Part shown: piece after piece, positions 2,441 to 18,239 of the stretch
How positions within the stretch are numbered: the first letter of the stretch is position 1
How the letters are laid out: the number at the start of each line of letters is the position of its first letter
Source of the DNA: an uncultured Myxococcales bacterium
GTDB lineage: Bacteria; Myxococcota; Myxococcia; Myxococcales; Vulgatibacteraceae
DNA: 18,239 nt
NCBI GenBank assembly: GCA_964504805.1
Contig: CAZDGH010000067.1
Span: 1 to 18,239, forward strand
Reading direction: 5' to 3'
Made by a program: the position numbers and the translations under genes
The notes under the pieces: model-generated
Database searches by the model: none
Told to the model about the DNA's origin: nothing
The model's input: only the letters and a program-made list of their open reading frames with translations

Positions 2441-2472
2441 TTGCTTCACTCCCGGGGCGGGTCTGCTAGATT
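2441..2472 (+). promoter_or_regulatory. Candidate sigma-70-like promoter for the small Cys-rich gene: TTGCTT, a spacer, then a TAGATT-like -10.
   Basis: TTGCTT at 2441-2446 and TAGATT at 2467-2472, about 38 nt before the ATG at 2510. The spacer is longer than the 17-nt optimum, so this is weak. The region 2430-2460 also holds a CCCGGG...CCCGGG palindrome. Confidence 0.2.
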
Positions 2473-2509
2473 CGCCGCACTTTCCCCACACCCTTCCGAG
2501 GAAGACCCG

Positions 2510-2815: not shown

Positions 2816-2824
2816 CCGCAGCGC

Positions 2825-2858
2825 CGGCCGGGAGCTCCTCGCCGAGGAGCCCCGGCCG
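2825..2858. terminator. GC-rich hairpin between convergent genes, a candidate bidirectional intrinsic terminator.
   Basis: cggccggg(a)gctcctc-gcc-gaggagccccggccg gives a 15-bp stem with one bulged A and a 3-nt loop. It lies 10 nt after the stop of the 2510..2815 gene and 4 nt before the stop of msrB on the other strand. No U-tract, as is common in high-GC genomes. Confidence 0.45.
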
Positions 2859-2861
2859 CCG

Positions 2862-3431: not shown

Positions 3432-3464
3432 CCGGGCCTCCCCCGTGAAGCGTCTCCGGAGGAT

Positions 3465-4310: not shown

Positions 4311-5422
4311 GCTGCGAGCTTCAGCGCCCGCTGCTCCTCGAGCAGCGACGCGAAGGTGCCGGAGAGGATCGCCTCGCGCATCCGGGCGACGTGGCGCTGG
4401 TAGAAGGTGAGGTTGTGGATGGCGAGGAGCCGCCGCCCGGTGACGCGCTTGCCGGAGAGGAGGTGCTGCAGGTACGCGCGCGTGTGGCTCGTGCACGTCG
4501 CGCAGGGGCAGCCCTCCTCGATCGGCCGGTAGTCGCTCTTGAACGCCTGCCGCTTCAGCCGCATCACGCCGCCGGGCACGTAGGCGAAGCCCTGCTGCGC
4601 CATCTTGGTGGGGATGATGCAGTCGAAAATGTCGACGCCCGCCGCGACCGCCTCGAGGATGTCGCCCGGCTTGCCGACGCCCATCAGGTAGCGCGCCCTG
4701 TCCTGCGGCAGGAGCTTCGCCGTGAACGCGGCGGTGGACCAGAGCGCGTCCTTGGTGTCGCCGACGGCGAGGCCGCCGATCGCGTAGCCGTCGAACGGCT
4801 GCGCGGTGATGAAGGCGGCGCTCTCCTCCCGGAGCGCGCGGTCGAGGCCGCCCTGGACGATCCCGAAGAGCGCCTGGTCGCTGCCGACCTTGGCCCGGGC
4901 CTCGAGGCTGCGGACCGCCCAGCGGTGGGTGCGCCCCATGGCGGCGAGGAGCTGCTCGCGCGGCACCGTGGACGGCGGGCAGACGTCGAGCGCCATCATC
5001 ACGTCGCTGCCGATGGCGATCTGGGTGCGGATGCTCTCCTCGGGCGTCAGCCGCCGCTTCTTCGGCACCGGCCAGCCGCGGAAGAACGCGCCCTCCTCGT
5101 CGACCTCGCAGTCGGCGGCGAGCGAGAAGATCTGGAAGCCGCCCGAGTCGGTGAGGACCGCGCCGTCCCAGCCCATGAAGCGGTGGATGCCGCCGGCCTC
5201 GAGGAAGCGGTCGGGGCCGGGCGCGAGCCACAGGTGGTAGGTGTTGGCGAGGATCGTCCGCGCGCCGCCGGTGGCGATCTCCTGCGGCGAGAGGCTCTCG
5301 ATGTTGGCGTGGGTCGCCACCGGCATGAACGCCGGGGTCGGCATCGACCCGTGGGGCGTGTAGAGGATCCCGGCGCGGGCGCCGGTGGGATCGACGGCGA
5401 CGAGCTCGAAGCGGACGGCCAT
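4307..5422 (-). CDS. tgt: Queuine tRNA-ribosyltransferase (tRNA-guanine transglycosylase).
   Basis: 371 aa. MAVRFELVAVDPTGARAGILYTPHG...TPAFMPV. Carries the zinc site CPCATCTSHTRAYLQHL and IHNLTFYQRHVARMREAI, collinear with bacterial Tgt. ATG at 5422-5420, TGA at 4309-4307. Confidence 0.9.
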   Translation of the reverse strand: MAVRFELVAVDPTGARAGILYTPHGSMPTPAFMPVATHANIESLSPQEIATGGARTILANTYHLWLAPGPDRFLEAGGIHRFMGWDGAVLTDSGGFQIFSLAADCEVDEEGAFFRGWPVPKKRRLTPEESIRTQIAIGSDVMMALDVCPPSTVPREQLLAAMGRTHRWAVRSLEARAKVGSDQALFGIVQGGLDRALREESAAFITAQPFDGYAIGGLAVGDTKDALWSTAAFTAKLLPQDRARYLMGVGKPGDILEAVAAGVDIFDCIIPTKMAQQGFAYVPGGVMRLKRQAFKSDYRPIEEGCPCATCTSHTRAYLQHLLSGKRVTGRRLLAIHNLTFYQRHVARMREAILSGTFASLLEEQRALKLAA

Positions 5423-5500
5423 GAGGGCGCGGACTCTACCGCGGCCGCGCCGGTTGCGAAGCCCGCCTGCCTCGGGTGGGATCGGCCGAGGAGGTGGCCC

Positions 5501-6049
5501 ATGGGCCTGCTCGCCGCGCGGCTGACCGTCGCTCTCGCGCTCGCAGTCCTCGTCGCCCTCGCCGCGGGCGACGCCTCGGCCTGCTCGTGCTACGGGCGGG
5601 CCTCGTTCCGCGTGGCCGCGCCGCGCGCTGCGCTGGTGATCCGCGCCGAGATCCTGGTCCACGGCGGCGGGACCGACGCCGACCCGAACACCTTCATGGA
5701 CGTCCGCGTCGACGAGGTGCTCCGCGGCTCGACGGCGGCGAAGACGGTCCGGGTGTTCGGCTCCAACGGGTTCAACTGCGGGGCGTGGCTGGCCAACTAC
5801 GAGGACGGCACGAGCTGGCTGCTCGCGCTCCGTCCGCTGGAACGAGAGCCGGGAGACGTGGGCGCGGTGGAGCCCTGGCTGATGTCGGGCTGCGCCCATC
5901 TCGGGGCGCTGGTCGAGGGCGAGCTGGTCAGGACCGACGCCGAGGTGATGTCGCTCTTCGAGGTGCGCGAGCTCGTCTCGCCGAGACCTCCGTCCCGGAC
6001 GCCGTCGCCTCGCGTGGCGGCCCCCGCGCCCGCTCCGCCGGACCTCTAG
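5501..6049 (+). CDS. Secreted protein with a TIMP-like (N-TIMP / NTR, OB-fold) domain. The mature N-terminus is predicted to be Cys-Ser-Cys.
   Basis: 182 aa. GAGGAGGTG RBS 5 nt before the ATG at 5501. Signal peptide MGLLAARLTVALALAVLVALAAGDASA, with predicted cleavage after ASA, exposes CSC. Mature CSCYGRASFRVAAPRAALVIRAEIL parallels TIMP-2 [22 protein letters not shown]. Four Cys in the N-domain fall at mature positions 1, 3, 66 and 104, against TIMP 1, 3, 72 and 101; VRVFGSNGFNCGAWL...SWLLAL parallels IRFVYT...VCG...EYLIAGK. The C-terminal tail is Pro-rich. The call is an inference from motif and spacing only. Confidence 0.6.
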   Translation: MGLLAARLTVALALAVLVALAAGDASACSCYGRASFRVAAPRAALVIRAEILVHGGGTDADPNTFMDVRVDEVLRGSTAAKTVRVFGSNGFNCGAWLANYEDGTSWLLALRPLEREPGDVGAVEPWLMSGCAHLGALVEGELVRTDAEVMSLFEVRELVSPRPPSRTPSPRVAAPAPAPPDL

Positions 6050-6636
6050 GCGCCCCGCGCGCCGAGCTGTCCGAGGAGCCCGCGCAGGATCCGGTGGGTC
6101 ATTCCCCAGATCGTCTCACCGTCGAAGCGCCAGGCGGCGAACCGTACCGGCAGCGGCCCGAGCCTGTGCTCGTGCTCGGCGTCGTGGGCGCCCGACGCGA
6201 GCGCGCCGAGGGGCACCCAGAAGGCGCGCACCACCTCGTCGGACAGCTCGATCCCCGGCCGCGGCGCGTCGAGGGCGAAGACCACCGGCGTCACCGCCAT
6301 CGGCCGCAGGCCGCCGTGCTCCTTCGCGGGCAGGTCGTCGAGCCGCCCGAGCACGCGCGCGCCCTCGAGCCCGACCGCGACCTCCTCTCGCGTCTCGCGC
6401 CGGGCCGTCGCCTCGAGGTCGGGATCGTCCGGTGACGCCCGGCCGCCGGGCAGCGCCACGTGCCCCGACCACGGATCGCCGCGCCGCTCCGCGCGCCGGA
6501 CGAGCAGCACCTCGAGCGCGTCGCCCTCGGGCCGCAGGATCACCGCGACCGCGGCGCGCACCGGCACGAGCGGGATCGAGAGGCGGCCGCGGCGGCGGAG
6601 CTTCTCCTCGAGGTGCGCGAGCGCGGCGCGGGGCAT
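6046..6636 (-). CDS. NUDIX hydrolase, CoA pyrophosphatase (NudL-like).
   Basis: 196 aa from MPRAALAHLEEKLRRRG. NUDIX box GGRASPDDPDLEATARRETREEVAV. The NuCoA-like motif LLVRRAERRGDPWSGHVALPGG sits upstream of the box. ATG at 6636-6634. The TAG stop overlaps the stop of the convergent 5501..6049 gene. The 253-aa track ORF is a 5' shadow extension. Confidence 0.75.
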   Translation of the reverse strand: MPRAALAHLEEKLRRRGRLSIPLVPVRAAVAVILRPEGDALEVLLVRRAERRGDPWSGHVALPGGRASPDDPDLEATARRETREEVAVGLEGARVLGRLDDLPAKEHGGLRPMAVTPVVFALDAPRPGIELSDEVVRAFWVPLGALASGAHDAEHEHRLGPLPVRFAAWRFDGETIWGMTHRILRGLLGQLGARGA

Positions 6637-6710
6637 GGGTCGATCCTGCCCGTGAGCGGCGCACGCGCAAGTGGCGCCGCCGCGGCGCCCGTGAAAGCAT
6701 CCGGCCTCCG

Positions 6711-8525
6711 ATGGCGCTCCCCGACCGACGCGCGCGAACCGCGCCGGCCCCACGCCCGGTCCCCGAGGCGGCGAGGCCGAAGGTGCTCGCCGGCGCGCCT
6801 CGCCCACCGCGACGGCCGCTGCCCCGCTGGCTCCCCCGGCTCTGGATCGCGACCGGCGCCGTCGCCGCCGCGATCGCCGGGCTCGAGTGGGGCTTCGACG
6901 TCGCCTCGCGCCCCGCGGTGCTCCTGGCGGTGACGGTCCTCGACGGCGTGCTCGTCGGGCTGCTCGCCGCGGAGCTCGGCCTGCGCCTCCAGGCTGCCAC
7001 CGAGCGCCTCGGCCTCGTCCGCGACCGCTGGGGCGACGTGCTGGCGCTCGCGCTCTGCCTGCTCCTGGTCGTGCTGGGGCTGCCGCGCGCCGCCGGCGCC
7101 GTCGCCGTCCTGCGCGCGCTCGGCCGCGGCCTGCTCGCCGCGCGACACGTCCCGCTCTTCGGCTCGGCGTTCGCGCTGCTCCAGGCGCGGCCGCTGGTGT
7201 CGCTGATCGCGTCGTTCGCGGTGGTGATCGCCTTCGGCACGCTGGCGCTCACGTTCCCCGCGGCGACGGCCGACCACGCCGGCGCGCCGCTCCTGACCGC
7301 GTTCTTCACCGCCACCTCCGCCACCTGCGTCACCGGGCTCGCCGTGGTGGACACCGCCACCTACTGGTCCCGCTTCGGCCAGCTGGTGATCCTCGGGCTC
7401 GTCCAGATCGGCGGCCTCGGGATCATGACCATCACCACCGCGCTCTCGATGGCGTTCCGCTCCACGATGACGCTGAAGGAGCGCGGCGCGATCCAGGAGA
7501 TGTACGAGGAGGAGACGATCCTCGGCTTCCGGAGGCTCATCGTCCGCGCGGTCGGGATCACCCTCGGCCTCGAGGCGCTCGGCGCCGCCGCGCTCTACCT
7601 GCGCTTCGACGCCTACGCCGACGTCCTCGGCCTCCGCGGCGAGGGGACGGTGCTCTTCCACGCGGTGTTCCACGCGGTCACCGCCTTCTGCAACGCCGGC
7701 TTCGCGCTCCACTCCGACAGCCTGGTGCGGTTCGTCGGCGACGTGCCGGTGAACCTCACCGTCGCGGTGCTGGCGATCGCCGGCGGCCTCGGGTTCCCGG
7801 TGATCGCGAACCTCCTGCACCTCGACCTGCTCCGCGCGCCGCGGCTCTTCTTCCGGCGGCTGCCGGTGCACGACCGGATCGTCTGGGTGGCGACGGCGGC
7901 CCTGCTCGCCGGCGGCACGCTGGCCTACCTGGTGGTGGAGTGGAACGGCGTGCTCCACGGCCTGTCGTTCCGCGAGCGCCTGGTGGCGGCCTCGTTCGCC
8001 TCGGTGACGACGCGCTCGGCCGGGTTCAACACCGTGGACTACGGCCTGCTCACCCAGCCCGGGGTGATCCTCACCTGCGCCCTGATGTTCATCGGCGGCT
8101 CGCCGGGCGGCACCGCCGGCGGCGTCAAGGTCACCACCGCCGCGGTGATGCTGCTCGCGGTGCGCGCGATCCTCCACGGCCGGCCCGACGTGGAGGTGAT
8201 GGGCCGCGAGCTGCCCCGGGCGACGATCTACCGGGCGGTCGCGGTGATCTTCATCAGCGGGGCGGGGCTCACCGCGCTGCTCGTCGTCCTCTTCGCCGTC
8301 GAGCGCCATCCGTTCGACCAGCTGCTCTTCGAGGCGGTGTCCGCGTTCGCCACCACCGGCCTGTCGATGAACCTCACCCCGAAGCTCTCGGCGGCCGGGC
8401 AGCTCGTGGTCGCCTTCCTCATGTTCGTCGGGCGCCTCGGGCCGTTCACCCTGGCGCTGGCCATCGGCTTCTCGCGGCACGCCGCGGCGTACCGCTTCCC
8501 GTCCGGCAAGGTCGTCGTCGGCTGA
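6711..8525 (+). CDS. trkH: Trk/Ktr-type K+ uptake transporter, membrane subunit (TrkH/KtrB family).
   Basis: About 605 aa. Selectivity-filter-like glycine motifs are repeated across the pseudo-repeats (GLVQIGGLGIMT, TTRSAGFNTV, FIGGSPGGTAGGVKVTT, FATTGLS). It has many TM helices, with two extra N-terminal helices as in the TrkH D0 domain. The ATG at 6711 has a weak RBS and is preceded by a Pro/Arg-rich low-complexity stretch, so the start is uncertain. TGA at 8523-8525. Confidence 0.8.
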   Translation: MALPDRRARTAPAPRPVPEAARPKVLAGAPRPPRRPLPRWLPRLWIATGAVAAAIAGLEWGFDVASRPAVLLAVTVLDGVLVGLLAAELGLRLQAATERLGLVRDRWGDVLALALCLLLVVLGLPRAAGAVAVLRALGRGLLAARHVPLFGSAFALLQARPLVSLIASFAVVIAFGTLALTFPAATADHAGAPLLTAFFTATSATCVTGLAVVDTATYWSRFGQLVILGLVQIGGLGIMTITTALSMAFRSTMTLKERGAIQEMYEEETILGFRRLIVRAVGITLGLEALGAAALYLRFDAYADVLGLRGEGTVLFHAVFHAVTAFCNAGFALHSDSLVRFVGDVPVNLTVAVLAIAGGLGFPVIANLLHLDLLRAPRLFFRRLPVHDRIVWVATAALLAGGTLAYLVVEWNGVLHGLSFRERLVAASFASVTTRSAGFNTVDYGLLTQPGVILTCALMFIGGSPGGTAGGVKVTTAAVMLLAVRAILHGRPDVEVMGRELPRATIYRAVAVIFISGAGLTALLVVLFAVERHPFDQLLFEAVSAFATTGLSMNLTPKLSAAGQLVVAFLMFVGRLGPFTLALAIGFSRHAAAYRFPSGKVVVG

Positions 8526-8541
8526 TCCCGGAGGATCGTCC

Positions 8542-9225
8542 GTGTCCAACGAGCTCGTGGTCGTCATCGGCATGGGGCAGTTCGGCGAGGTGGTGGCGAG
8601 GACGCTCGGCGGCCGCGGCCGCGAGGTGCTCGTCCTCGACCGCTCCGAGGAGCGGATCGAGGACCTCAAGGACGCGGTGCCCCGCGCCGTCCGCGCCGAC
8701 TCCACCGACGAGGGCGCGATGCGCGCGCTGGCGGTGGCCGAGGCGAAGACCGCGGTGGTGGCGCTGGGCGAGGAGGACTTCGAGGCGGCGGTGCTCACGG
8801 TCGCGCTGCTCAAGCAGCTCGGCGTGCCGCAGATCATCGTCCGCGCCTCGTCCCGCACCCACGGCCGGATCTTCGAGCTCGTCGGGGCGACGCGGGTGGT
8901 GTTCCCGGAGCTGCAGATGGGCGAGGTGCTGGCGCGGTCGCTCCTCGGCCGCGGCGTCCACGCCTACTTCGCGCTCGAGACGGGCCACACCCTCGCCGAG
9001 GTCGAGGTCCGCCCGGAGTGGGCGCACAGGAGCCTCGCCGAGCTCGAGCTGCGCAAGCGCTACGGCGTGCACGTGCTGGCGATCCGGCGGCCGGTCTCCG
9101 CCGGCGACGGTACCCTCCGCGACCACACCGTGGAGCTGCCCGCGCCGACCGAGGCGCTGCGCACCGGCGACCACCTCGTGCTCGTCGGCACGCAGGACGC
9201 GGTCTCGGGGCTCACCGGTGCGTGA
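8542..9225 (+). CDS. trkA: K+ transporter peripheral RCK subunit (TrkA/KtrA; RCK_N NAD-binding domain plus RCK_C).
   Basis: 227 aa. LVVVIGMGQFGEVVARTL...GREVLVLD is a Rossmann GxGxxG motif, followed by an RCK_C-like C-terminus (LAELELRKRYGVHVLAIRR...GDHLVLVG). GTG at 8542 with a GGAGGAT RBS 5 nt upstream. It lies 16 bp after the trkH stop, so the two are probably an operon. Confidence 0.85.
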   Translation: MSNELVVVIGMGQFGEVVARTLGGRGREVLVLDRSEERIEDLKDAVPRAVRADSTDEGAMRALAVAEAKTAVVALGEEDFEAAVLTVALLKQLGVPQIIVRASSRTHGRIFELVGATRVVFPELQMGEVLARSLLGRGVHAYFALETGHTLAEVEVRPEWAHRSLAELELRKRYGVHVLAIRRPVSAGDGTLRDHTVELPAPTEALRTGDHLVLVGTQDAVSGLTGA

Positions 9226-10957
9226 GGCCTGGGTCACCGCCGCGCTGCTCCTGGCCGCGGGCTGCGTCGACCCGGTGTGCCGGGAGGACGCGGACTGCGC
9301 GGACGGTCTCGGCTGCGTGGAGGGCGCGTGCGTCGAGGCGAGCGCCCAGGAGGCCTGCGGCGACGGCGTCGTCGAGGCGGGTGAGGACTGCGACGAAGGC
9401 GCCGCCAACGGCGCGCCGGAGAGCGCGTGCGGCCCCGGCTGCCTCCAGGCCCGGTGCGGCGACGGCGTGGTGCAGCCGTCGCTCGGCGAGAGCTGCGACG
9501 AGGGCGAGGACGCGAACTCGGCCGGCGGCGGCTGCGGCCCGCGCTGCGTGCCGGTCGCGTGCGGCGACGGCGTCGCCGAAGCCGCCGAGGCGTGCGACGA
9601 AGGCCCCGAGGCGAACCTGCGCGGCCGACACTGCCGCGCCGACTGCACCGCGCCGAGCTGCGGCGACGGCGTCGTCGACGCGCCGTACGAGGACTGCGAC
9701 GACGCGGCGGCCTCGACCGACTTCTCGGAGACCTGCACCGGCGCCTGCCGCGTGCCGTCGTGCGGCGACGGCGTGATCACGCGGGCGACGGAGGCGTGCG
9801 ACGGCGGCCCGGGCTGCACGGCCGCGTGCGCCTTCGAGGGCTGCGGCGCCGTCGAGCTCGTGGCGGGCGCCGGGTTCACGCTGGTACGCCGCGCCGACGG
9901 CGTGCTGCGGGCCGCCGGCAGCGACGCGCAGGGCGAGCTCGGCCGCGTCGACCGCGGCGCGGACGTCCTCTCGCCCGAGGACCTCGACGGCGCCGGCCTG
10001 GTGCAGCTCGCCGCGGGCGAGGCGTTCGTGATCGCGCGGACCGCCGCGGGCACGGTGGTGACCTGGGGCTCGAACGTCGCCGGCCAGCGCGGGCTCTCCG
10101 TGCTCGAGGAGCGCCCGGGCCGCTCGGAGGTGCCGGGGCTGCCGCCGATCGTCGACGTCGCCGCCGGCGCGGTGTCCGCGTTCGCGCTCGACGAGGACGG
10201 CGCGATCTGGAGCTGGGGCGGCGCCTACTACCGCGAGCTCGGCGGCGACGACGGCGTCGTCGAGGCCTGCCCGATCGGCCACCGCTGCCGGCCCGAGCCA
10301 CGGCGGCTCGAGGTCGCCGGCGTGCGCTTCGTCGACGTCGCCGCCGGCCCGTACACCGCGCTCGCGATCGACGAGCGGGGCGAGCTCTGGGGCTTCGGCC
10401 AGGCGGCGTTCGGCCAGCTCGGCCACGCCGTGGCCGAGGCGTGCCCGGACGGCGTGAACGTGTGCGTGCGCGCGCCGGACCGGGTGGGCGTCGGCGGCGT
10501 GGTGCGCGCCGCCGCCGGCCAGGAGTTCACGCTCTTCCTCGACCGCCGCGGCGCGCTCCGTGGCCTCGGCCGCATCGCCTACGCCGGCGCGCCGGCCGAC
10601 GCGCCCGAGCTCGTGGTGTCCACGCCCACCCCGATCCCGCTCGCGAGCGGCGCGCGGATCCACGACGTCGCCGCGGGGCCGTACCACGCCCTCGTCCTCG
10701 ACGAGGCCGGCGTCGTCCACGCCGGCGGCGGCGACGACGACGGCCGCCTGGGACGCGGGCCGTTCGTCGGCGTGACGCCGCTCGCGGAGGTGCCGGGTCT
10801 CGGCCGCGCCACGCAGGTGGCGGCGGCGCTCGCGCACTCGGGGGTGCTCCTCGACGACGGCTCGGTCGTCGCGTTCGGCACGGGCGCGAACGGCCAGCTC
10901 GGGCAAGGCGACGGCGCGCCGTCGGGCACGCCGGTGGCGTTCCCCGTCTGCCCCTAG
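9218..10957 (+). CDS. Lipoprotein with 5 N-terminal Myxococcus cysteine-rich repeats (CGDGVV..E.CD.G type), followed by RCC1-like beta-propeller repeats.
   Basis: 579 aa. Its GTG at 9218 overlaps the trkA stop by 8 nt. A short lipoprotein-type signal M/VREAWVTAALLLAAGC has a lipobox-like LAAGC. There are five ~34-aa repeats, each starting CGDGVV/A/I....E.CD.G. Six to seven RCC1-type blades follow (WGSNVAGQRG, WSWGGAYYRELG, WGFGQAAFGQLG, GRIAYAG, GGGDDDGRLG, FGTGANGQLGQG). TAG at 10955-10957. The 1356-aa track ORF is a shadow fusion. Confidence 0.7.
   Translation: MREAWVTAALLLAAGCVDPVCREDADCADGLGCVEGACVEASAQEACGDGVVEAGEDCDEGAANGAPESACGPGCLQARCGDGVVQPSLGESCDEGEDANSAGGGCGPRCVPVACGDGVAEAAEACDEGPEANLRGRHCRADCTAPSCGDGVVDAPYEDCDDAAASTDFSETCTGACRVPSCGDGVITRATEACDGGPGCTAACAFEGCGAVELVAGAGFTLVRRADGVLRAAGSDAQGELGRVDRGADVLSPEDLDGAGLVQLAAGEAFVIARTAAGTVVTWGSNVAGQRGLSVLEERPGRSEVPGLPPIVDVAAGAVSAFALDEDGAIWSWGGAYYRELGGDDGVVEACPIGHRCRPEPRRLEVAGVRFVDVAAGPYTALAIDERGELWGFGQAAFGQLGHAVAEACPDGVNVCVRAPDRVGVGGVVRAAAGQEFTLFLDRRGALRGLGRIAYAGAPADAPELVVSTPTPIPLASGARIHDVAAGPYHALVLDEAGVVHAGGGDDDGRLGRGPFVGVTPLAEVPGLGRATQVAAALAHSGVLLDDGSVVAFGTGANGQLGQGDGAPSGTPVAFPVCP
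9353..9840 (+). repeat. Tandem in-frame ~102-nt coding repeats (5 units) encoding the Myxococcus Cys-rich repeat module.
   Basis: tgcggcgacggcgt recurs at about 9356, 9458, 9560, 9659 and 9761. These are imperfect coding repeats, not CRISPR, because the spacers are themselves homologous. Confidence 0.6.
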
Positions 10958-10966
10958 GAACACGAA

Positions 10967-11005
10967 GGGCCCGCCCCGGAGCGCCGTCGCGTCCGTGGCG
11001 GGCCC
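10967..11005. terminator. Hairpin (9-bp GC stem gggcccgcc / ggcgggccc with a 21-nt loop) just 3' of the lipoprotein gene.
   Basis: The inverted repeat 10967-10975 / 10997-11005 is seen directly. It lies 10 nt after the TAG at 10957. No U-tract. Confidence 0.35.
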
Positions 11006-11047
11006 GTCGCACCGGGGGCGCCTCGTCGGCGGCCCCGTGGCACCGCG

Positions 11048-11066
11048 CGGGAGCGTGCCGCTCCCG
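11048..11066. terminator. Hairpin cgggagcg-tgc-cgctcccg (perfect 8-bp stem, 3-nt loop), 4 nt 3' of the SPFH gene stop on the minus strand.
   Basis: Seen directly. It sits between convergent genes and is a candidate intrinsic terminator for the minus-strand SPFH transcript. Confidence 0.4.
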
Positions 11067-11069
11067 GGG

Positions 11070-12203
11070 TCAGCCCGGCGCCTTCAGCTGCAGCATCGGC
11101 ATGGCGCCCTCGCCGAGGACGAGGTGCACCTGGCCGACCTTGGCCGCGAGCTCCTTGTACGCCTCGAGCTCCTTGAGGCGGACGAGGAGCGGGTTCTCGG
11201 CGAGGACCTTCGCGGTCTGCGCCAGCGACCGCGTGGCCGCGGTCTCCTCGCGGCGCAGGATCACGTTGGCCTCCGCCTCCTTGCCGGCCTCGATCACGCG
11301 GTTGAGCAGGGCCTTCATCTCGCCCGGCAGGACCACGTCCTTGACGCCGAACGACACCAGCCCGAGGCCGACCACCTCGGCGCGCGTCTTCACCTCGGCC
11401 GCGATCGCGCCGGCGAGCGCCTCGCGGGTCGCGAGGAGCTCGTCGAGCGTCGCCTCCGCCACGGCCTCGCGCGCCGCGAGCTGCATCGCGAGGTACAGGA
11501 CGTCGTCCGGCTGCCGCGCGACCGTCGCCAGCCGCACCGGGTCGGCGACGAGGTACGCCGCCGAGAGGTTGAGGCGAAGGGTGACCTTGTCCTTCGTCAT
11601 CACCTCCTGGCCGGTGACGTGGAGGAGCCGCTCGCGGAGGTCGAGCACCGAGAGCAGCACCTTGCGGACCACCGTCCAGGCCGCGTGGCGGCCGGGGCCG
11701 AGCACCTCGTCGAGCGTGCCGTCGACGTAGCGGAGCGCGACCGAGCCCTGGGGCACGGTGACCTCCACGTGGTCGGACGCCGGGACGAGCGCCTTCACCT
11801 CGTCGCGGAGCGGCGCCGTGGCGACGCCGGAGACGTCGAGCGTCTCCACCGTCACGGCGGGCACGAGCACGCGGGCGCCCTCGGCGGTCCGCTTCTCGGT
11901 GCGCTCCCACGTGGCGACGGCGTGCTCGCCGGCGCCGAGCCACCTCGCCGGGCGGCCGCGCCGGGTGACCAGCGCGCGCTCGTCCGGGCGCACGGTGACG
12001 AGGGCGATCTCGCCCTCCGGCGCCAGCGCGAGCTGCTCCGCCCGGAGCGGCAGGACGAGCGCCTCGCCGTCGAGGCGGAAGACCTCGAGCTTCCGGAACG
12101 GGCGCCACAGCCGGTGGCGGCCCGGCCCGAGCCACCTCGCCGGCACGCCGTTCACGTGCACCACGGCGCGCTGGCCGAGCGGGACGTCGAGCTTCAGGTA
12201 CAT
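11070..12203 (-). CDS. SPFH/band-7 (stomatin/prohibitin-like) domain protein with a ~170-aa N-terminal domain containing three LGPG.H..W repeats.
   Basis: 377 aa. ATG at 12203-12201 with a GGAGAGGAGGTG RBS 6 nt upstream. The C-terminal two-thirds is SPFH-like (VMTKDKVTLRLNLSAAYLVADPVRLA...REAVAEATLDELLATREALAGAIAAEVKTRAEVVGLGLVSFGVKDVVLPGEMKALLNRVIEAGKEAEANVI). The N-terminal repeats are PARWLGPGRHRLW, PARWLGAGEHAVATW and LGPGRHAAWTV. The 537-aa and 502-aa track ORFs are shadow extensions. Confidence 0.75.
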   Translation of the reverse strand: MYLKLDVPLGQRAVVHVNGVPARWLGPGRHRLWRPFRKLEVFRLDGEALVLPLRAEQLALAPEGEIALVTVRPDERALVTRRGRPARWLGAGEHAVATWERTEKRTAEGARVLVPAVTVETLDVSGVATAPLRDEVKALVPASDHVEVTVPQGSVALRYVDGTLDEVLGPGRHAAWTVVRKVLLSVLDLRERLLHVTGQEVMTKDKVTLRLNLSAAYLVADPVRLATVARQPDDVLYLAMQLAAREAVAEATLDELLATREALAGAIAAEVKTRAEVVGLGLVSFGVKDVVLPGEMKALLNRVIEAGKEAEANVILRREETAATRSLAQTAKVLAENPLLVRLKELEAYKELAAKVGQVHLVLGEGAMPMLQLKAPG

Positions 12204-12431
12204 GCTGCACCTCCTCTCCCCTTCCTTGCTGCGGTCGAAAAAGTGGGAGCGCCGCCTCCGCGAGGCCCGCGTCGCCGTCCCCGACGCCCCGGGTCGCGGC
12301 ATGCGGCGCGCCTGCGGCGCGGGGGCGGGGCGGGCCGTCGCTGCGCTGGCCCCGTCCCGGCGTCCGCCGCGGGCCGCACGGCCACGCCGGGCCGGCTCCG
12401 CGGGCGTCGCTCGGGCGGCTCTCCCGTTGCG

Positions 12432-12503
12432 TGCTCCGAGGGGGATTCGAACCCCCGACCACCGGCGTAAAGCCGGTGCCCTACCAGGCTGGGCGATCGG
12501 AGC
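12432..12503 (-). tRNA. tRNA gene. Acceptor stem, D-arm and T-arm are canonical. The anticodon arm is atypical. The anticodon is ambiguous: TAC (Val) if the loop is 5 nt, or UUA if a 7-nt loop forms.
   Basis: Reverse complement: GCTCCGA-TC-GCCC-AGCCTGGTA-GGGC-A-CCGGC-TTTAC-GCCGG-TGGTC-GGGGG-TTCGAAT-CCCCC-TCGGAGC-A. The 7-bp acceptor stem GCTCCGA/TCGGAGC is perfect. The D-arm GCCC/GGGC has an AGCCTGGTA loop. The T-arm GGGGG-TTCGAAT-CCCCC is present. Total length is 72 nt, two short of a standard tRNA, and the deficit falls in the anticodon loop: a perfect 7-bp stem CACCGGC/GCCGGTG encloses only TTTAC. No CCA is encoded. Confidence 0.65.
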
Positions 12504-12681
12504 CATCTGCGTTTCAGGCAGACGGCAGGTGGACCGTGACGTGGTCCGGCCGGGTGGGACCCGAGGTGCGGAAGCCGGACGTGGCGACGCGGACCGGGGA
12601 CGCGGGCGGGAGCGGCGCGGAGCCCCTCCTTCCCGTGCCCGGCCGCGGCCCACCGGGCCCGCGGGGCACTCCCACCGAGAC

Positions 12682-13215
12682 ATGAAAGCTCGGCTTCTCT
12701 ACGATGCGCGCACCATGCGCGCCCTCCTCCTCGCCCTTCCTCTCCTCGTCCTCGGCGCCTGCGCCGGCGACGAGCCGGTGCGTGAGAACCCGCTCGGCAC
12801 CTGCGCCACCAACGACGAGTGCCACACCGAGGAGTACTGCGGCGGCTTCCTCGGCGGCGACTGCGGCACCTCGGGGCAGCGCGGCGGCTGCACCCTGCGG
12901 CTCACCGAGTGCGATCCCGTCGACGAGCCGGTCTGCGGCTGCGACGGCAGCGTCTACCCGAGCACCTGCGAGGCCGCGCGCAACGGCGTCGCCCTCTCCG
13001 CCCTCGGCGGCTGCGAGGTGCCCGCCGGCCGCTTCGCCTGCGGCCCCCGCCTCTGCGACGCCGCCACCGAGTACTGCCGCGACGCCGGCTCGTCCGTCGG
13101 CTGCCAGCCCCTCCCCGACGGCTGCGACGGCACCGACTGCGCCTGCTTCGCCGGCGACCTGCCGGGCTCCTGCACGTCGTGCGCGGTCGCTGGAGGCCTG
13201 GTGCTGGACTGCTGA
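12682..13215 (+). CDS. Cysteine-rich lipoprotein with a Kazal-like (serine protease inhibitor-type) domain.
   Basis: 177 aa. The start is ATG at 12682, or alternatively the in-frame ATG at 12715. Lipoprotein signal MRALLLALPLLVLGAC. The mature part has about 24 Cys. The segment GGCTLRLTECDPVDEPVCGCDGSVYPSTCEAARNGVALSALGGC fits Kazal spacing C-x6-C-x7-(PVCG.DG..Y)-C-...-C. TGA at 13213-13215. The 485-aa track ORF is a shadow extension. Confidence 0.65.
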   Translation: MKARLLYDARTMRALLLALPLLVLGACAGDEPVRENPLGTCATNDECHTEEYCGGFLGGDCGTSGQRGGCTLRLTECDPVDEPVCGCDGSVYPSTCEAARNGVALSALGGCEVPAGRFACGPRLCDAATEYCRDAGSSVGCQPLPDGCDGTDCACFAGDLPGSCTSCAVAGGLVLDC

Positions 13216-13218
13216 AAG

Positions 13219-13378
13219 CAGGCTCCAGGCTCCAGGCTTCAGGCTCCAGCCAGCAGGTAGCTCGGCGCTCCGCGCCTCGCGCTCCCCAGCTGGCGAGCTT
13301 GCCGGGGCCCCCAGCCTGGTGCCGCCGATACGAAGCGGTGGGTGCTGGAGCCCGGAGCCTGGAGCCTGGAGCCTCAGG
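13219..13378. repeat. Copy B of the ~155-bp terminal-inverted-repeat intergenic element (same family as 291..446).
   Basis: Left arm ggctccaggctccaggct at 13221-13238. Right arm ggagcctggagcctggagcc at 13356-13375. Core gcaggtagctcggcgctccgcgcctcgcgctc is identical to copy A apart from one or two substitutions. The gaagcggtgggtgctggagc block is shared. It starts 4 nt after the stop of the Kazal-like gene. Confidence 0.6.
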
Positions 13379-13823
13379 CCCGGAAGGCCTGCTACACCGC
13401 GGGAGCCCGGCGCGGGCGCCGCCGCACCGGGGGGACGGGCTGGGGCGGGCCGCGAGGGTGGGTTGCCGAACGGCGGCCACGACGCCCCGTGGACGGGGCG
13501 GCGCCCGCGCGCGGGCTCCGGGACGGGGGGGCGCCCGGCCGGAGCCGGCAGCGCCGCATCCCTCACGACGAGCGGCCTCGGGCTTCGGCCGTCGCGTGTC
13601 TCTGTATTCGGATTCTGTGTACACGTCTCCCGTCGCGCCGCGGCTCTCGCCGTGCGCCGATCGCAGCCCGTGCGATCCGGGTCTCTCTCTGCCGCGCCGG
13701 AGCCGGTGCCCGTGGGCCCTTGGCTCCCCCGCCTCACCGCCGCCGCCCGCCGCGTGCGCGCCCGGGCCGAGCCCAGGAACGTCGAAGGCCGGGTCCCCTT
13801 CGTGGGAGCCCGGCCTCCGAGGA

Positions 13824-13840
13824 CCAGCGAGAATCGCTGG
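13824..13840. terminator. Small perfect hairpin ccagcga-gaa-tcgctgg, 6 nt 3' of the candidate 42-aa ORF on the minus strand.
   Basis: 7-bp stem with a 3-nt loop, seen directly. A candidate terminator for the FHA/small-ORF transcript. Confidence 0.3.
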
Positions 13841-13845
13841 GAAAC

Positions 13846-13974
13846 CTAGGGGACCGGCCCTCCCGAGGGGAAGAAGCCCAGGTCGCGGATCGTGCCGCTG
13901 GCCGCGTCGTACGGGCACGGGCCGGCGGGCGTCGCCGCGTTCCTGCCGTCGCGCTGTCCGTGGTTCCACGCCAT
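13846..13974 (-). CDS. Candidate small protein of 42 aa (MAWNHGQRDGRNAATPAGPCPYDAASGTIRDLGFFPSGGPVP), downstream of the FHA gene on the same strand.
   Basis: ATG at 13974-13972 with a GAGGTGG RBS about 4 nt upstream. 40 of 42 codons end in G or C, close to the bias of real genes in this genome. TAG at 13848-13846, followed by the hairpin. There are no homology clues, so the call is weak. Confidence 0.25.
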   Translation of the reverse strand: MAWNHGQRDGRNAATPAGPCPYDAASGTIRDLGFFPSGGPVP

Positions 13975-14079
13975 GGCCACCTCGTCTCGATCCGACTGCG
14001 GCGCCGGCGGGGACCGCCGACGAACGAACGGGAAGCTAGCAGCGACGACCCGAAAAGTCAACCAACCGCTGTCTCGGAT

Positions 14080-14922
14080 TTACGCGCCCTCGCGGTAGGT
14101 GAACACCGCACCGCCCACCTCGAGCAGGTCGCCGTCGCCCAGGGGCGCCTTCTGGACCCGGGCGCCGTTCACCTTCACCCGGCCGAGGAGGCCGAGCTTC
14201 CGCACCGCGTAGCCGCCGTCGCCCCGGCGCTCCAGGGTCGCCGCCTCGTCGGCGCCGACCTCGGGCACGCGGAGCTGGCAGCGGTCCGAGGCGCCCAGCA
14301 CGTTCGCGGCGTGGCGGAGCGCGTGGACCCGCACCGGCGTCACCTGGTGCTGCACCAGGTGCGGCTCGAGCAGCGCGGCCTTCTCCCGCCGCAGCCGCGC
14401 GAGCTCGGCAGGGGCGATGTGGCGGGTGGTGCTCCCGCTCGCGTCCTCCCGCCCGGCGGCCTCGAGCGGCTCGAAGCTCCTCGACAGCGCCTCGTAGTCG
14501 AAGCGCCGCGCCTCGAGCGTGATCAGCTCCGCCTCTCGCTCCTCGCCGCCGGAGGGGCCGTCGTCGAGGACCAGCTCGCCGGTGACCAGCGGCAGCTCCT
14601 CCTCGACGAGCGCGGTGTCCGGGATCGACTCCATGACGCCCTGCCGGTAGCGGACGACGTGGGCGCCGAGCTCGATCCGGTCGCCGTCGGCGAGCGGCCG
14701 CTTGTACTCGCGGCGGCCGTTCACGAAGGTGCCGTTGGTGGTGCCGAGGTCCTCGAGCCACATCGCGCCGTCCTTGCCGTACACGCGGGCGTGCCGGCGC
14801 GAGACGATCGGATCGTCGAGGCGGATGGCGGCGCCCGCCTCGCGGCCGAGCACCATGCACGAGCCGTCCCAGACGACGTCGCGCAGCTTCTTCCCGTCCT
14901 TCACGATCTCGAACGTCGCCAT
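14080..14922 (-). CDS. Protein with two FHA (forkhead-associated, phospho-Thr binding) domains.
   Basis: 280 aa from MATFEIVKDGKKL. ATG at 14922-14920 with a GGGAGGTGG RBS 5 nt upstream. N-terminal FHA: VLGREAGAAIRLDDPIVSRRHARVY...LEDLGTTNGTFVNGRR...GDRIELG. C-terminal FHA: LGASDRCQLRVPEVGADEAATLERRGDGGYAVRKLGLLGRVKVNGARV...GDLLEVGGAVF. It is divergent from the Ser/Thr kinase gene. Confidence 0.8.
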   Translation of the reverse strand: MATFEIVKDGKKLRDVVWDGSCMVLGREAGAAIRLDDPIVSRRHARVYGKDGAMWLEDLGTTNGTFVNGRREYKRPLADGDRIELGAHVVRYRQGVMESIPDTALVEEELPLVTGELVLDDGPSGGEEREAELITLEARRFDYEALSRSFEPLEAAGREDASGSTTRHIAPAELARLRREKAALLEPHLVQHQVTPVRVHALRHAANVLGASDRCQLRVPEVGADEAATLERRGDGGYAVRKLGLLGRVKVNGARVQKAPLGDGDLLEVGGAVFTYREGA

Positions 14923-15035
14923 GGAGCCACCTCCCGGTGCGTGTGCGGGGCGCGGACACCCGTAGCAGAAGCTCGCGGCTCGACGACATCCCATGCCCCG
15001 GATCGGGCCGCCGCGACCGGGCTAACATCGCGGCC

Positions 15036-18000
15036 GTGCCGACGACCGCCCGCGCCGCGCCGCCGCCGCTCCTCGGGCGGTACCGCGTCCTCGCGCCGCT
15101 CTCCGCGGGGCCGGACGGCGCCGCCTACCAGGCGCGCGACGAGCGGGACCGGAGCCCGGTCGAGGTGCGGAGGCTGTCCGCGGCCGCGGCGGCGTCGCTC
15201 CGCGCGCGACTCCCGCTGCTCGCGCGCGCGGGGCACCCGGGCGTGCTGCGCGTGCTCGAGGCCCGGCTCGACGGCGCGGAGCGGATCGTCGTGGTCGAGG
15301 CCGTCGGACGCACGCTCGCGGAGCTCGAAGGGCGCGGCCCGCTCCTCCCGCCGGAGCTGCGGCTCCGCCTGGCACCGCTCGCCGAGGCGCTCGCGGGGGC
15401 GCACCGCCTCGGCCTCGTCCACGGGCGCCTCGACGCGGGGGCGGTGCGGCTGCGCGACGACGGGTCGCCGTGCCTCGACCTCACCGGCCTGGACGTGGGC
15501 CGCCCGGGGCGATCCGGCGCACGGGCGCCCGCGCACGCCGACGAGGGCCCCGCCGGGGACGTGCGCGCGCTCGGCCTGCTGGCGCGGGAGCTCGCCGGGG
15601 AGGGCCTCGCGCAGGACGGCGCGCTGTCCGCCCTCGTCGGCGAGCTGCTGGCGCCGGCGCCCGAGGATCGGCCGCCGGCCGCCGAGGTGGCGCGGCGGCT
15701 CGCCTCGGCCCCCGAGCCGCGGACCCTGGTGGAGCCGCCGGCCGCAGAGGCCGAGTCGGAGGACCCGAGGACGCTCGGCCGCTTCGAGCTGCTCGAGAAG
15801 CTCGGAGAGGGCGCCATGGGCCGCGTCTACCGCGCCCGCGACGTCGCCGACGGCTCCGTGGTCGCGGTGAAGGTGCTCCTGCCCGAGCTCGCGCGCAGCG
15901 CGCAGCACCTGAGGCGCTTCGAGCGCGAGGCGCGGCTGCTCGCGCGGCTCCGCGGCCCGAACGTCGCCGCGCTGCTCGAGGTGAACCGCGATCGCGGCCG
16001 GCACTTCCTAGCCATGGAGTACGTGGAGGGCCCGACGCTCTCGCAGCTCCTCCGGGAGCGGGGCCGCCTCGGCGTCGAGGAGGCGCTGTCTCTCGCCACC
16101 GATCTCGCCCTCGCCGACGTGCACGCGCTCGGGATCGTCCACCGCGACGTGAAGCCGGGGAACGTGCTCGTCTCCGCCCGCGAGGGCTCGGCGAAGCTCG
16201 TGGACTTCGGGGTGGCAAGGCTCGCCGAGCCGGACGGCCCCGAGGCCGACCTCACCCGGGCCGGCGCGCTGGTCGGCTCGCCGCACTTCATGTCGCCGGA
16301 GCAGTGCGCCGGCCTGCCCGCCGACGCGCGCGCCGACGTCTACGCCCTCGGGGTGACGCTCTTCCGGGCGCTCGCCGGCCGGCTGCCGTTCGAGGCCGCA
16401 GACGCGCGCGGCGTCATCGCCCAGCACCTGTCGGCGCCGCCGCCGTCGCTCCGCGCGCTGGCGCCGGAGGTCGGGGACGGCGTCGTCCACCTCGTGGCGC
16501 GCATGCTGGCGAAGGAGCCCGCCGAGCGTCCGGCCGACGGCGCCGCGGTGCTCGACGAGCTGCTCCGGCTCCGCGGCCGCGCGCCCGCCGGCGCCGGGGC
16601 CCACCCCGCCGCGCCCGCCGGCGCGGGTCCGGCGCTCCGCTACGAGTTCGAGTGGGCGCTCGCGGTCCCGCCGGCGCGGCTCTGGCCCTTCGTCGCCGAC
16701 ACCAACCGCGTCAACAAGGCGATCGGCCTCGAGGCGTTCGCGCTGACCTACGACGGACCGCCGGACGCCCGCGTGCAGCGGGCGCGCACGCGGCTCTCCG
16801 GCCTGGACCTCTCCTGGGTCGAGCACCCGTTCGAGTGGGTCGAGGGGCGCCGCTTCGGCGTCGTCCGCGAGTTCTCGGAGGGGCCGTTCACCTGGTTCCG
16901 CAGCGTCGTCGACCTTCGCCCGGATCCAGAGGGCGGCACGAGGCTCGTGCAGGTGATCGAGGCCGAGCCCCGCGGGCTCGTCGGCCGCGCGGCGGCGGCG
17001 CTCGAGATCGGCGTCAAGGCGAAGCGCAACCTGGGGAGGCTCTACGAGCGCGTCGCCGAGCTGGCCGCCGCGGAGCCGGGCCCGGAGACGCGGGTGCTCG
17101 CGTCGCCGTTCGAGGAGCCGCACCGGCTCTCCGCGCCGGCGCGGGCGCGGCTCGACCGCCACGTGGCGGCGCTGCTGGCGCAGGGCGTCGACGCCGACGT
17201 GGTGGAGCGGCTCTCGATCTACGTCGCCTCGGCGCCGGCCGCCGAGGTGGCGCGGCTCCGTCCCCGCGAGCTGGCGCGGCGCTTCCGCGTCGAGGAGGCG
17301 CCCGTGGTCGAGGCCTGCCTCCGCGCCGCGGCCGAGGGGATGCTCGCGCTCCGCTGGGATCTGCTCTGCCCGGTGTGCCGCGTCTCCTCCGGGTTCGTGG
17401 AGACGCTTCGCGCCGTGCGCGAGCACGCCCGGTGCGAGGCTTGCGGCGTCGACTTCCCGCTCGACCTCGGGCGGTCGGTGGAGCTCGCGTTCCGGGTCTC
17501 CCACGAGCTGCGCGAGGCGGACCACGCGACGTACTGCTCCGGCGGCCCTGCGCGGCTCCCGCACGTGGCGCTGCAGGTGCGGCTCGCGGCGGACGAGCGC
17601 CTCGAGGTCGAGCTCGGGCTCGGCCGCGGCACGTACCGGCTCGCGAGCCCGGCGCTGCCGACGGCGGCGCTGGTGCGGGTGGCGGGGCAGGAGGCGCAGC
17701 CGCGGCTCGAGCTCCCGCTCGGTCCGCCCGCCTCGCCGGCGCCGCTCGGGCTCCGGGAGGGCCGGCAGCTCCTCGTCCTCGAGAACCGCGCCGGCCGCGA
17801 GCTCCTGGTGCGGCTCGAGCGCACCGCGGGCCGCGACGACGCGCTCACCGCGGCGGAGGCCGCGAGCTCGCCGCTGTTCCGCGCGCTCTTCCCCGCGGAG
17901 CTGCTCGAGCGCGGGCGGCTCGTGCAGCTCGAGGGCGTGACGCTCCTCGCCGTCGACGCCGCCGACGCGCCGGCGCTCTACCGCGCCCTGGGCGAGCCGG

Positions 18001-18239
18001 CGGCGTTCGCGCGGCTCCACGAGCTGCGGGAGAGGGTCGCGGCCCACGGGGCGTCGCACGGCGGCGCCGCGGTGAAGGCGCTCGGCGACGGCCTCCTCCT
18101 CGCGTTCGGCGACGCGGCCGCGGCGGGCGCCGCCGCGGTGGGGCTCCGCGGGCTCCTCTCGGGCGGCGCCTCCCTCGAGGGCGCCGGCGTCCGCGCCGCG
18201 GCGGTCCGCGGCCCGGCGCTCGTCGCCCCCGGCGACGGC
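15036..18239 (+). CDS. Large multidomain Ser/Thr protein kinase, 3'-partial. Order: N-terminal degenerate pseudokinase-like domain, canonical Hanks kinase domain, SRPBCC-like and CxxC..CxxC zinc-ribbon-like region, class III adenylyl/guanylyl-cyclase-like domain.
   Basis: The frame is open from the GTG at 15036 to the window end, at least 1067 aa. The start is uncertain because the RBS is weak. Pseudokinase region, about 15036-15700: LGRYRVLAPLSAGPDGAAYQA replaces GxGxxG; VEVRRL replaces VAIK; LVHGRLDAGAVRL replaces HRDxKxxN; no DFG. Active kinase, about 15780-16560: LGEGAMGRVYRA, VAVKVL, IVHRDVKPGNVLV, DFGVAR, GSPHFMSPEQ. Then RLWPFVADTNRVNKAIGL (SRPBCC-like), CPVCR (about 17365) and CEACG (about 17440). 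Finally VTLLAVDAADAPALY...HGGAAVKALGDGLLLAFGDAAAA (about 17920-18130), collinear with the cyclase homology-domain core including both metal-binding Asp positions. Confidence 0.85.
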   Translation, partial: MPTTARAAPPPLLGRYRVLAPLSAGPDGAAYQARDERDRSPVEVRRLSAAAAASLRARLPLLARAGHPGVLRVLEARLDGAERIVVVEAVGRTLAELEGRGPLLPPELRLRLAPLAEALAGAHRLGLVHGRLDAGAVRLRDDGSPCLDLTGLDVGRPGRSGARAPAHADEGPAGDVRALGLLARELAGEGLAQDGALSALVGELLAPAPEDRPPAAEVARRLASAPEPRTLVEPPAAEAESEDPRTLGRFELLEKLGEGAMGRVYRARDVADGSVVAVKVLLPELARSAQHLRRFEREARLLARLRGPNVAALLEVNRDRGRHFLAMEYVEGPTLSQLLRERGRLGVEEALSLATDLALADVHALGIVHRDVKPGNVLVSAREGSAKLVDFGVARLAEPDGPEADLTRAGALVGSPHFMSPEQCAGLPADARADVYALGVTLFRALAGRLPFEAADARGVIAQHLSAPPPSLRALAPEVGDGVVHLVARMLAKEPAERPADGAAVLDELLRLRGRAPAGAGAHPAAPAGAGPALRYEFEWALAVPPARLWPFVADTNRVNKAIGLEAFALTYDGPPDARVQRARTRLSGLDLSWVEHPFEWVEGRRFGVVREFSEGPFTWFRSVVDLRPDPEGGTRLVQVIEAEPRGLVGRAAAALEIGVKAKRNLGRLYERVAELAAAEPGPETRVLASPFEEPHRLSAPARARLDRHVAALLAQGVDADVVERLSIYVASAPAAEVARLRPRELARRFRVEEAPVVEACLRAAAEGMLALRWDLLCPVCRVSSGFVETLRAVREHARCEACGVDFPLDLGRSVELAFRVSHELREADHATYCSGGPARLPHVALQVRLAADERLEVELGLGRGTYRLASPALPTAALVRVAGQEAQPRLELPLGPPASPAPLGLREGRQLLVLENRAGRELLVRLERTAGRDDALTAAEAASSPLFRALFPAELLERGRLVQLEGVTLLAVDAADAPALYRALGEPAAFARLHELRERVAAHGASHGGAAVKALGDGLLLAFGDAAAAGAAAVGLRGLLSGGASLEGAGVRAAAVRGPALVAPGDG

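Follow-up and report, generated by a model that had tools for sequence, protein, structure and literature searches.

What kind of element is the inverted repeat that lies directly behind a cysteine-rich lipoprotein gene in an uncultured Myxococcales bacterium of the family Vulgatibacteraceae, and is it a unit that can be moved or replaced? The repeat, here called copy B (13219-13378), is found in a stretch of 18,239 nucleotides that we analysed as a whole and refer to as the window (NCBI GenBank assembly GCA_964504805.1, contig CAZDGH010000067.1, positions 1 to 18,239), which has a base composition of 76% G+C. A second copy, copy A, is located close to the beginning of the same window. An initial annotation, made from the sequence alone, had described the two copies as members of a family resembling miniature inverted-repeat transposable elements (MITEs), with common arms and a common core, and had suggested that copy B might have been inserted together with extra sequence. 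Our analysis shows copy B to be a sharply bounded, discrete unit and copy A to be its paralogue; it also shows that a close relative carries a different cassette in exactly the same slot, and that the two arms of a cassette change in concert. We consider the chances about even that copy B belongs to a family of palindromic cassettes, which have inverted arrays of about four heptamer units as arms, occupy a slot beginning at the first base past a stop codon, are exchanged as a unit, and would act as hairpins at the 3' end of the upstream gene.

Anatomy and exchange of the copy B cassette

The gene upstream of copy B (12682-13215, plus strand) ends with a TGA codon at 13213-13215, and the repeat starts at 13219, the fourth base past this stop, as the initial annotation had stated; the label of Kazal-like that it had given to the gene product finds no support in Pfam. 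Taken as an inverted repeat, copy B has two arms of 31 nt each (13220-13250 and 13344-13374), which are 94% complementary and are separated by 93 nt. Each arm is a direct tandem array of a heptamer, GGCTCCA or its complement, without internal dyad symmetry. The left arm (13221-13248, plus strand) consists of four units, GGCTCCA GGCTCCA GGCTTCA GGCTCCA, and the right arm (13346-13373) of four inverted units, TGGAGCC CGGAGCC TGGAGCC TGGAGCC. The interior between them (13249-13345) is 97 nt long and holds a 25-mer, GCTCGGCGCTCCGCGCCTCGCGCTC, at 13260-13284 as well as a small hairpin, CCGCCG...CGGTGG, at 13322-13341. The complete cassette, as delimited by the comparison with the relative described below, extends on the plus strand from the first base past the TGA to the base before CACCGCGGG (13216-13394) and includes a trailer hairpin, GGCC-CGGAA-GGCC (13377-13389), which is not present in the relative.

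Copy A (288-461, plus strand) is a full-length paralogue of copy B at a distance of 12.9 kb and in an equivalent position behind a stop codon. It likewise begins 4 nt past a TGA, at 285-287, which ends a plus-strand gene, and its cassette fills the entire gap of 174 nt between this codon and the TAA (462-464) of a convergent short-chain dehydrogenase (SDR) gene on the minus strand (462-1229). From left to right, copy A consists of degenerate outer units (292-312), a main left arm of four heptamers (317-344), an interior of 77 nt (345-421) and a right arm of three units (422-442). The interior contains the same 25-mer (356-380) and, near the right arm, a small hairpin (398-414) that is also present in copy B with a G-U change. 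Apart from the four arms of the two copies, the window contains no tandem heptamer array.

Our sequence alignments show that the left halves of the two copies share 91% identity over 64 nt and their right ends 81% over 47 nt. This likeness is bounded by the arms, and the genes beyond them are unrelated. The homology is not confined to the arms themselves, since the ends of the interiors are also alike and 36 nt of interior sequence are held in common. The earlier description of copies with common arms and core, and with a variable interior that is longer in copy B, is thus sustained in its main points: the 25-mer occurs exactly twice in the window, and none of 200 shuffled sequences gave two matches. 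The significance attached to the core fares less well. Given 6 mismatches in 64 nt, a terminal stretch of 25 nt free of mismatches has a probability of about 0.04 before any correction for position, so that the core is not statistically special and not clearly more conserved than the rest of the alignment. When folded as RNA, copy B reaches -110.4 kcal/mol (z -5.3) and copy A -108.9 kcal/mol (z -3.6).

What carries our reading is a comparison with a close relative at the orthologous locus. This locus was found through the 83%-identical counterpart of a 42-codon open reading frame (ORF; 13846-13974, minus strand), and it is represented by two contigs of 1763 nt, L116 and L117, from two assemblies in the European Nucleotide Archive (ENA). 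The 3' end of the upstream cysteine-rich gene is 94.6% identical between the window and the relative. The slot of copy B (13216-13394) shows an identity of 54%, which means that the sequences are unrelated, and it is embedded in flanks with identities of 95-99%. Beyond it, the identity is 96.4% in the first part of the spacer (13396-13535), apart from a 69-nt G-rich insertion in the relative, 99.0% in the second part (13536-13845), 92.2% in the small ORF, 94.3% in the intergenic stretch that follows it and 96.6% in the next gene, which encodes a forkhead-associated (FHA) domain. The divergent segment opens with the first base past the TGA, its end is one base short of CACCGCGGG, and both boundaries lie in unique sequence. 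A search for synteny through the FHA protein failed, since its closest homologue, found in the same samples, is 42% identical and lacks synteny.

In place of copy B the relative carries a cassette of 172 nt with a leader of 22 nt and an interior unrelated to that of copy B. Its left arm is made of three GGCTACA units and one GGCTTCA unit, and its right arm reads TGTAGCC TGTTACC TGTAGCC TGTAGCC, so that the C-to-A change in the left arm is mirrored by a G-to-T change in the right arm. It folds at -88 kcal/mol, and its similarity to other sequences is confined to the arms. Since a different cassette of the same design occupies the same slot, copy B is a discrete and replaceable unit. Since the flanks diverge less than the slot, cassettes turn over faster than the DNA around them, and the use of the same variant unit in both arms indicates that the arms of one cassette change together. 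The 25-nt core does not occur in the relative's cassette, and it is therefore not needed at this locus. The two sequences form a natural 'allelic' pair, which sets the boundaries of the unit to the base, and the polymorphic slot offers a concrete site for tracing, in existing read sets, the turnover of cassettes, any empty alleles and any effects on transcripts. The proposal of a MITE-like element thus holds in part. Copy B is a discrete inverted-repeat element with a paralogue 12.9 kb away, and it is a movable or replaceable unit; its arms, however, are heptamer arrays instead of classic terminal repeats, no target-site duplication is visible, and the interiors of the family are not variants of one master.

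How such a cassette might work can be outlined as follows. It may be a non-autonomous unit that spreads or is exchanged like MITEs or like doublets of repetitive extragenic palindromic (REP) sequences, which are known as REPINs; recombination or template switching between arrays would be an alternative route. If transcribed as the start of the 3' untranslated region, the cassette is predicted to fold into a hairpin of about -110 kcal/mol, which could end or protect the transcript of the upstream gene. Such a role at the 3' end, either as a terminator or as an RNA stabiliser, would fit the window, where canonical U-tract terminators are not in excess: three terminator-like sites were found compared with 2.3 expected by chance, none of them near the element, and the scan gave none within 12300-14300. 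It would also fit the Xanthomonas repeats, for which transcripts are reported to start or stop within G-quadruplex-capable repeats more often than within control repeats (PMC4692102).

Heptamer arrays in other genomes and competing explanations

The arms of copies A and B have many counterparts elsewhere. An 18-mer from the arm, GGCTCCAGGCTCCAGGCT, identifies more than 108 loci among species-representative genomes, in metagenome-assembled genomes (MAGs) of Myxococcota, Acidobacteriota and Planctomycetota; this and all counts on the family that follow refer to the matches listed. The same heptamer is in use across distant soil phyla. The loci cluster in few MAGs, with about 22 in the Myxococcales MAG CALFEQ01, 6 in JAFAER01 and several each in MAGs of Acidobacteriota (Vicinamibacteria) and Planctomycetota, while the window holds two elements, or four arrays, in 18 kb. 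In 108 loci there are 147 arrays of at least three units, with a mode of four units, a range of 3-16 and the consensus GGCTYCR. As judged by a frame-periodicity test of stop-codon adjacency, 28 arrays in the sense orientation have the end of a coding region no more than 10 nt upstream of them, compared with 4 on the antisense side. Twenty-odd arrays form inverted pairs around interiors of 10-377 nt, and many seemingly solitary arrays have a partner that is degenerate or made of another heptamer. Across 24 paired elements the interiors are mutually unrelated with three exceptions, namely modules of a second heptamer family that are nested in elements of CALFEQ01, repeats of the CAATCCG type common to L015 and L107, and copies A and B of the window. 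Mirrored unit variants like those of the relative also occur at other loci, namely GACTCCA/TGGAGTC at L069 and GGCTACA/CGTAGCC at L068.

Several further arrays deserve to be recorded beside this family. The second heptamer family of CALFEQ01, (GAGGACT)n or (AGTCCTC)n, is linked to a hairpin GCGCGCGC-NNNN-GCGCGCGC; it is found at L039 5637-5915, L093 264-400 and 7224-7330, and L104 6989-7391, and at times it lies within an element that has GGCTCCA arms or has a GGCTCCA array as its partner. Further arm units are GAAGCCC/GAAGTCT in L010 and CAATCCG in L015 and L107. Intergenic (GGCTCCA)4-5 arrays are also present in two cultured strains, Stutzerimonas azotifigens DSM 17556 (L060 7400-7620), where the array is flanked by REP-like palindromes, and Brevundimonas sp. 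CEF1 (L008 7640-7690). A search for (GGCTCCA)4 in viral contigs gave few matches, all of them unrelated heptamer microsatellites. One IMG/VR contig (L121 2100-2420) carries a long mosaic of 7-8-nt tandem repeats that includes 14 GGCTCCA units, which indicates that arrays of this kind are also able to expand as simple microsatellites. In one Myxococcales MAG (L062 2602-3034), a heptamer-armed element encloses a disrupted four-helix-bundle gene, which presumably resembles the protein family of 23S rRNA intervening sequences; a tie between the elements and such genes was considered and dropped, because tblastn finds a gene of this kind in 1 of 110 loci.

Several results weigh against the reading of copy B as an exchangeable cassette with a hairpin role, and they are best considered together. 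The evidence for the swap comes from one relative at about 3x coverage, though its locus was assembled twice independently. Only two copies with the interior of copies A and B are known. The 25-mer has no match in GTDB species representatives or in JGI metagenomes, and a looser search for the junction pattern of arm and core gave a single match, which lies inside coding DNA and was judged to be due to chance. A concatenated six-frame translation of both copies, intended to catch spurious ORFs predicted across further copies, likewise gave no scoring match among 5.8 billion proteins. A search by protein family found no transposase among the ORFs of the window, and no target-site duplication is visible at copy A, at copy B or at the relative's cassette. 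The bases past the right arms are TGCCTCTAGCC in copy A and TCAGGCCCGG in copy B, and neither hairpin has a U-tract on either strand. Real arm pairs show 92.2% Watson-Crick pairing, compared with 91.6% when arms are swapped between elements, and 16.5% of 1000 partner-shuffles reach the observed value, so that there is no excess of pairing. Mismatches compatible with G-U pairing are equally frequent on both strands (19 versus 19). Given the strand-symmetric mismatches and the lack of any gain in pairing over shuffled partners, the arms carry no signal of RNA-specific selection. Since many arrays elsewhere look solitary or have a partner made of a different heptamer, the array, not the hairpin, could be the basic unit.

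The last point leads to the main rival, which holds that there is no element at all: each array would be an independent signal at the 3' end of a gene, or a simple sequence repeat, the inverted pairs would result from convergent genes, and the hairpin would be incidental. The bias of arrays to the sense strand behind stop codons (28 versus 4), the solitary arrays, the partners made of other heptamers, the unrelated interiors and the lack of a pairing excess are all in favour of it. We nevertheless regard it as unlikely, because the right arm of copy B has no gene end next to it, the nearest one, the stop of the 42-codon ORF, being about 470 nt away, and because the homology of copies A and B extends into the ends of the interiors. 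Nor does it account for the replacement of the whole block at once in the relative, for the single variant unit carried by both of the relative's arms or for the mirrored variants at L069 and L068. Action at the DNA level, with the arrays as iterated protein-binding sites or the palindrome as a cruciform or recombination site comparable to integron attC sites, appears quite unlikely to us. The attC sites of integrons lie directly after ORFs and fold as hairpins, and a replacement precisely at a gene boundary, strand-symmetric mismatches without an RNA-specific signature and a heptamer in use across distant phyla, which suggests a shared trans-acting factor, would suit such a site. Inspection by eye, not with a pattern tool, reveals no attC-type core (RYYYAAC/GTTRRRY) in the cassette of copy B or in that of the relative, there is no integrase or recombinase in the window, and the adjacent gene, with a 3' end 94.6% identical in the relative, is not exchanged with the hairpin. 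More doubtful still is a classic MITE, that is, a deletion derivative of an insertion sequence (IS) moved by a transposase that recognises terminal inverted repeats. In its favour are the inverted ends, the size of 150-180 nt, the location between genes, the two copies in 18 kb and, in line with mobility, the different family member at the orthologous site. It is opposed by arms that are simple-sequence arrays of 3-16 units instead of unique terminal repeats, by interiors that copies of one master would be expected to share, and by the lack of a target-site duplication and of a transposase in the window.

Two other explanations are very improbable. In one of them, copy B would be a structured small RNA or a cis-regulatory RNA with the 25-nt core as its functional part. 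The identity of the 25-mer in both copies and the retention of the small hairpin near the right arm with a G-U change speak for it. Against it, the core is indistinguishable from the background identity of about 91%, its predicted structure differs between copies A and B, it has no match in the database genomes and metagenomes mentioned above, and no Rfam family matches: in an Rfam 15 scan of the window a tRNA alone passes, and nothing meaningful appears within 13200-14100 at E values up to 10. The orthologous locus, where the cassette has no such core, largely refutes this possibility. The least probable explanation of all is a chimeric join of the assembly through the repeated arms. Short-read contigs do break there: the Logan contig with the upstream gene ends 31 nt inside the left arm of copy B, and another ends precisely at the end of the shared 25-mer of copy A, as de Bruijn contigs break at repeated sequence, which also lends indirect support to these sequences being repeated. 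However, an independent Logan contig (L118) spans copy A intact and identical, another (L114) confirms the left junction of copy B, and the relative's cassette was assembled identically in L116 and L117 with boundaries in unique sequence, all of which makes a chimera unlikely. The window strain is also present, with 100% identity, in Logan assemblies of SRR10580905 and SRR32005135/6.

The spacer and other features of the window

The initial annotation had drawn attention to about 700 bp without a credible long ORF behind copy B. This is borne out by the 701 nt of 13379-14079, which match no protein family of Pfam in any frame, although the 42-codon ORF lies within them. Its suggestion that copy B was inserted together with extra sequence does not stand. 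It had advised looking for 13380-13845 in related strains, and the relative has this region, 96-99% identical, beside a different cassette, which refutes co-insertion. The non-coding spacer (13395-13845) lies outside the element and is ancestral, not cargo of copy B; this spacer of some 450 nt is better seen as a separate and strongly conserved non-coding region. In the relative it carries a 69-nt insertion after 13534 (L116 ~1275-1345) with runs of 5-7 G, and L116 and L117 differ mainly at this place.

The spacer has no Pfam match in any frame and, in the scan of 13200-14100, no Rfam match. Its folding is unremarkable (z -2.0 and -0.7), and a fold of the two-sequence alignment offers no covariation, the sequences being near-identical. 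It differs from the relative at 2 of 348 nt (13541-13888) and at 1 of 121 nt (13396-13516). The neighbouring coding and intergenic DNA has a divergence of 3.4-5.7%, above that of 13395-13888; the FHA gene, for example, has 25 mismatches in 725 nt, and 13 of its codon changes are synonymous, 9 nonsynonymous. Judged from these two sequences, the conservation of the spacer may reflect selection on a non-coding function, such as a non-coding RNA or a regulatory region, or a recent recombination tract.

A gene caller predicted the 42-codon ORF (MAWNHGQRDG...) as a gene on two Logan contigs, and a protein identical to its product is recorded in NCBI and Logan sources. The product of the ORF is 83% identical in the relative, with 7 nonsynonymous and 2 synonymous codon changes, and 9 of the 10 differences fall within the 40 nt of 13889-13928, both ends being conserved. 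It is doubtful that this ORF is a protein gene under purifying selection; it is either unconstrained as a protein or under diversifying selection. Directly downstream of it on the minus strand, two hairpins can be read from the sequence (13782-13820 and 13824-13840), and these probably end the transcript of the FHA-domain (phosphopeptide-binding) gene and the small ORF.

Two other features of the window deserve mention. A tRNA-like gene on the minus strand (12431-12503) is classified by ARAGORN as tRNA-Stop with the anticodon TTA, which would read UAA, and scores 60.1 bits against the Rfam tRNA model. In its anticodon loop, CTTTACG, C37 is unusual and C32 could pair with G38, and its anticodon arm has no match in viral contigs. 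At least one gene of the window ends in TAA, namely the dehydrogenase gene with its stop at 462-464. Within 9323-10760, in a large gene for a protein with RCC1-repeat and DUF4215 regions, direct repeats of 50-100 nt and 63-80% identity form several families, which look like ordinary coding repeats.

Comparison with known repeat systems

Several well-known classes of intergenic elements resemble the cassettes in part. Like MITEs such as Correia, ERIC and Nezha, they are small, non-coding, intergenic and multi-copy, with inverted termini. Terminal inverted repeats of the MITE type are present, with a length of 31 nt and a complementarity of 94%, but they are simple-sequence arrays. Unlike MITEs, the cassettes have no target-site duplication, as the flanks of copy A (GGTC / TGCC) and copy B (AAGC / TCAG...TGCTA) contain no direct repeat, and they have termini of variable length, no conserved interior and no known parent IS. 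REP sequences and REPINs are extragenic, often lie between convergent genes, occur in many copies and cause no target-site duplication, and roles in the stability of mRNA 3' ends and in termination have been proposed for REP sequences and the bacterial interspersed mosaic elements (BIMEs) that they form. REP doublets are said, in work of 2011 attributed to Bertels and Rainey and in the earlier REP literature, to form hairpins and to be mobilised by RAYT transposases. The cassettes are like REPINs in being extragenic inverted doublets that form a long hairpin. They differ in two ways: the arm described here is a non-palindromic tandem array, while a REP unit itself forms an imperfect palindrome of unique sequence, about 20-35 nt long; and the interiors here have 10-377 nt and are unrelated, while the spacer of a REPIN is short and family-specific. 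No RAYT or other transposase family matched among the ORFs of the single 18-kb contig. With intrinsic (Rho-independent) terminators, among them the bidirectional ones found between convergent genes, the cassettes share a GC-rich stem-loop right after a stop codon, and copy A does lie between convergent genes. Their stem-loop is nevertheless 125-155 nt long, compared with about 20-40 nt in terminators, has no U-tract, and is repeated and exchangeable.

The closest likeness is to the heptamer repeats of other bacteria. An excess of intergenic heptamer repeats in bacteria has been on record since the short tandemly repeated repetitive (STRR) sequences of cyanobacteria, and we know of no accepted function for intergenic heptameric tandem repeats. 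Such repeats include GGGAATC in Xanthomonas and GGGGAYT (STRR) in Nostoc, both with a clear preference for four units (Rehm et al. 2015; PMC4692102), GGACCGG in Geobacter metallireducens, with 49 elements of four units each (PMC2700814), and TAACTGA arrays in Beggiatoaceae (PMC4679880); none of them has an established function. The arrays of Xanthomonas lie at a mean distance of 28 nt from the 5' ORF with a strong bias to a few nt from the upstream stop, 70-75 convergent inverted pairs occur per genome, and there is little positional conservation of arrays between Xcc and Xac (PMC4692102). The GGCTCCA arrays resemble those of Xanthomonas, Nostoc and Geobacter in their unit of 7 nt, their preference for four units, their intergenic location on the coding strand a few nt past a stop, their frequent convergent inverted pairs able to form stem-loops, and their poor conservation of position between related species. 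We found no mention of GGCTCCA arrays in the literature.

There are also differences. In contrast to the units of Xanthomonas and Nostoc, neither GGCTCCA nor its complement TGGAGCC contains more than two Gs in a row, so that the proposed three-tetrad G-quadruplex cannot form; yet the arrays keep the same rules of four units, sense strand, post-stop position and inverted pairs. Their hosts also differ, being Myxococcota, Acidobacteriota and Planctomycetota known as MAGs. The duplication of a whole block of arm, interior and arm within a genome, and its exchange between relatives, were not seen in the sections consulted of the papers on known heptamer repeats. The elements of the window are a new member, from Myxococcota and with the unit GGCTCCA, of the class of four-unit heptamer arrays behind stop codons. 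We speculate further, while holding this to be fairly unlikely, that all such arrays form one class of exchangeable cassettes irrespective of the heptamer, whether GGCTCCA, the GGCTACA of the relative, GGGAATC in Xanthomonas or GGACCGG in Geobacter, and that a dedicated machinery writes, copies or swaps them to the base at the stop codon and keeps their arms matched. If this were true, the G-quadruplex explanation for the repeats of Xanthomonas and Nostoc would be incidental, and a single mechanism would resolve the puzzle that heptamer repeats in bacteria have posed for three decades.

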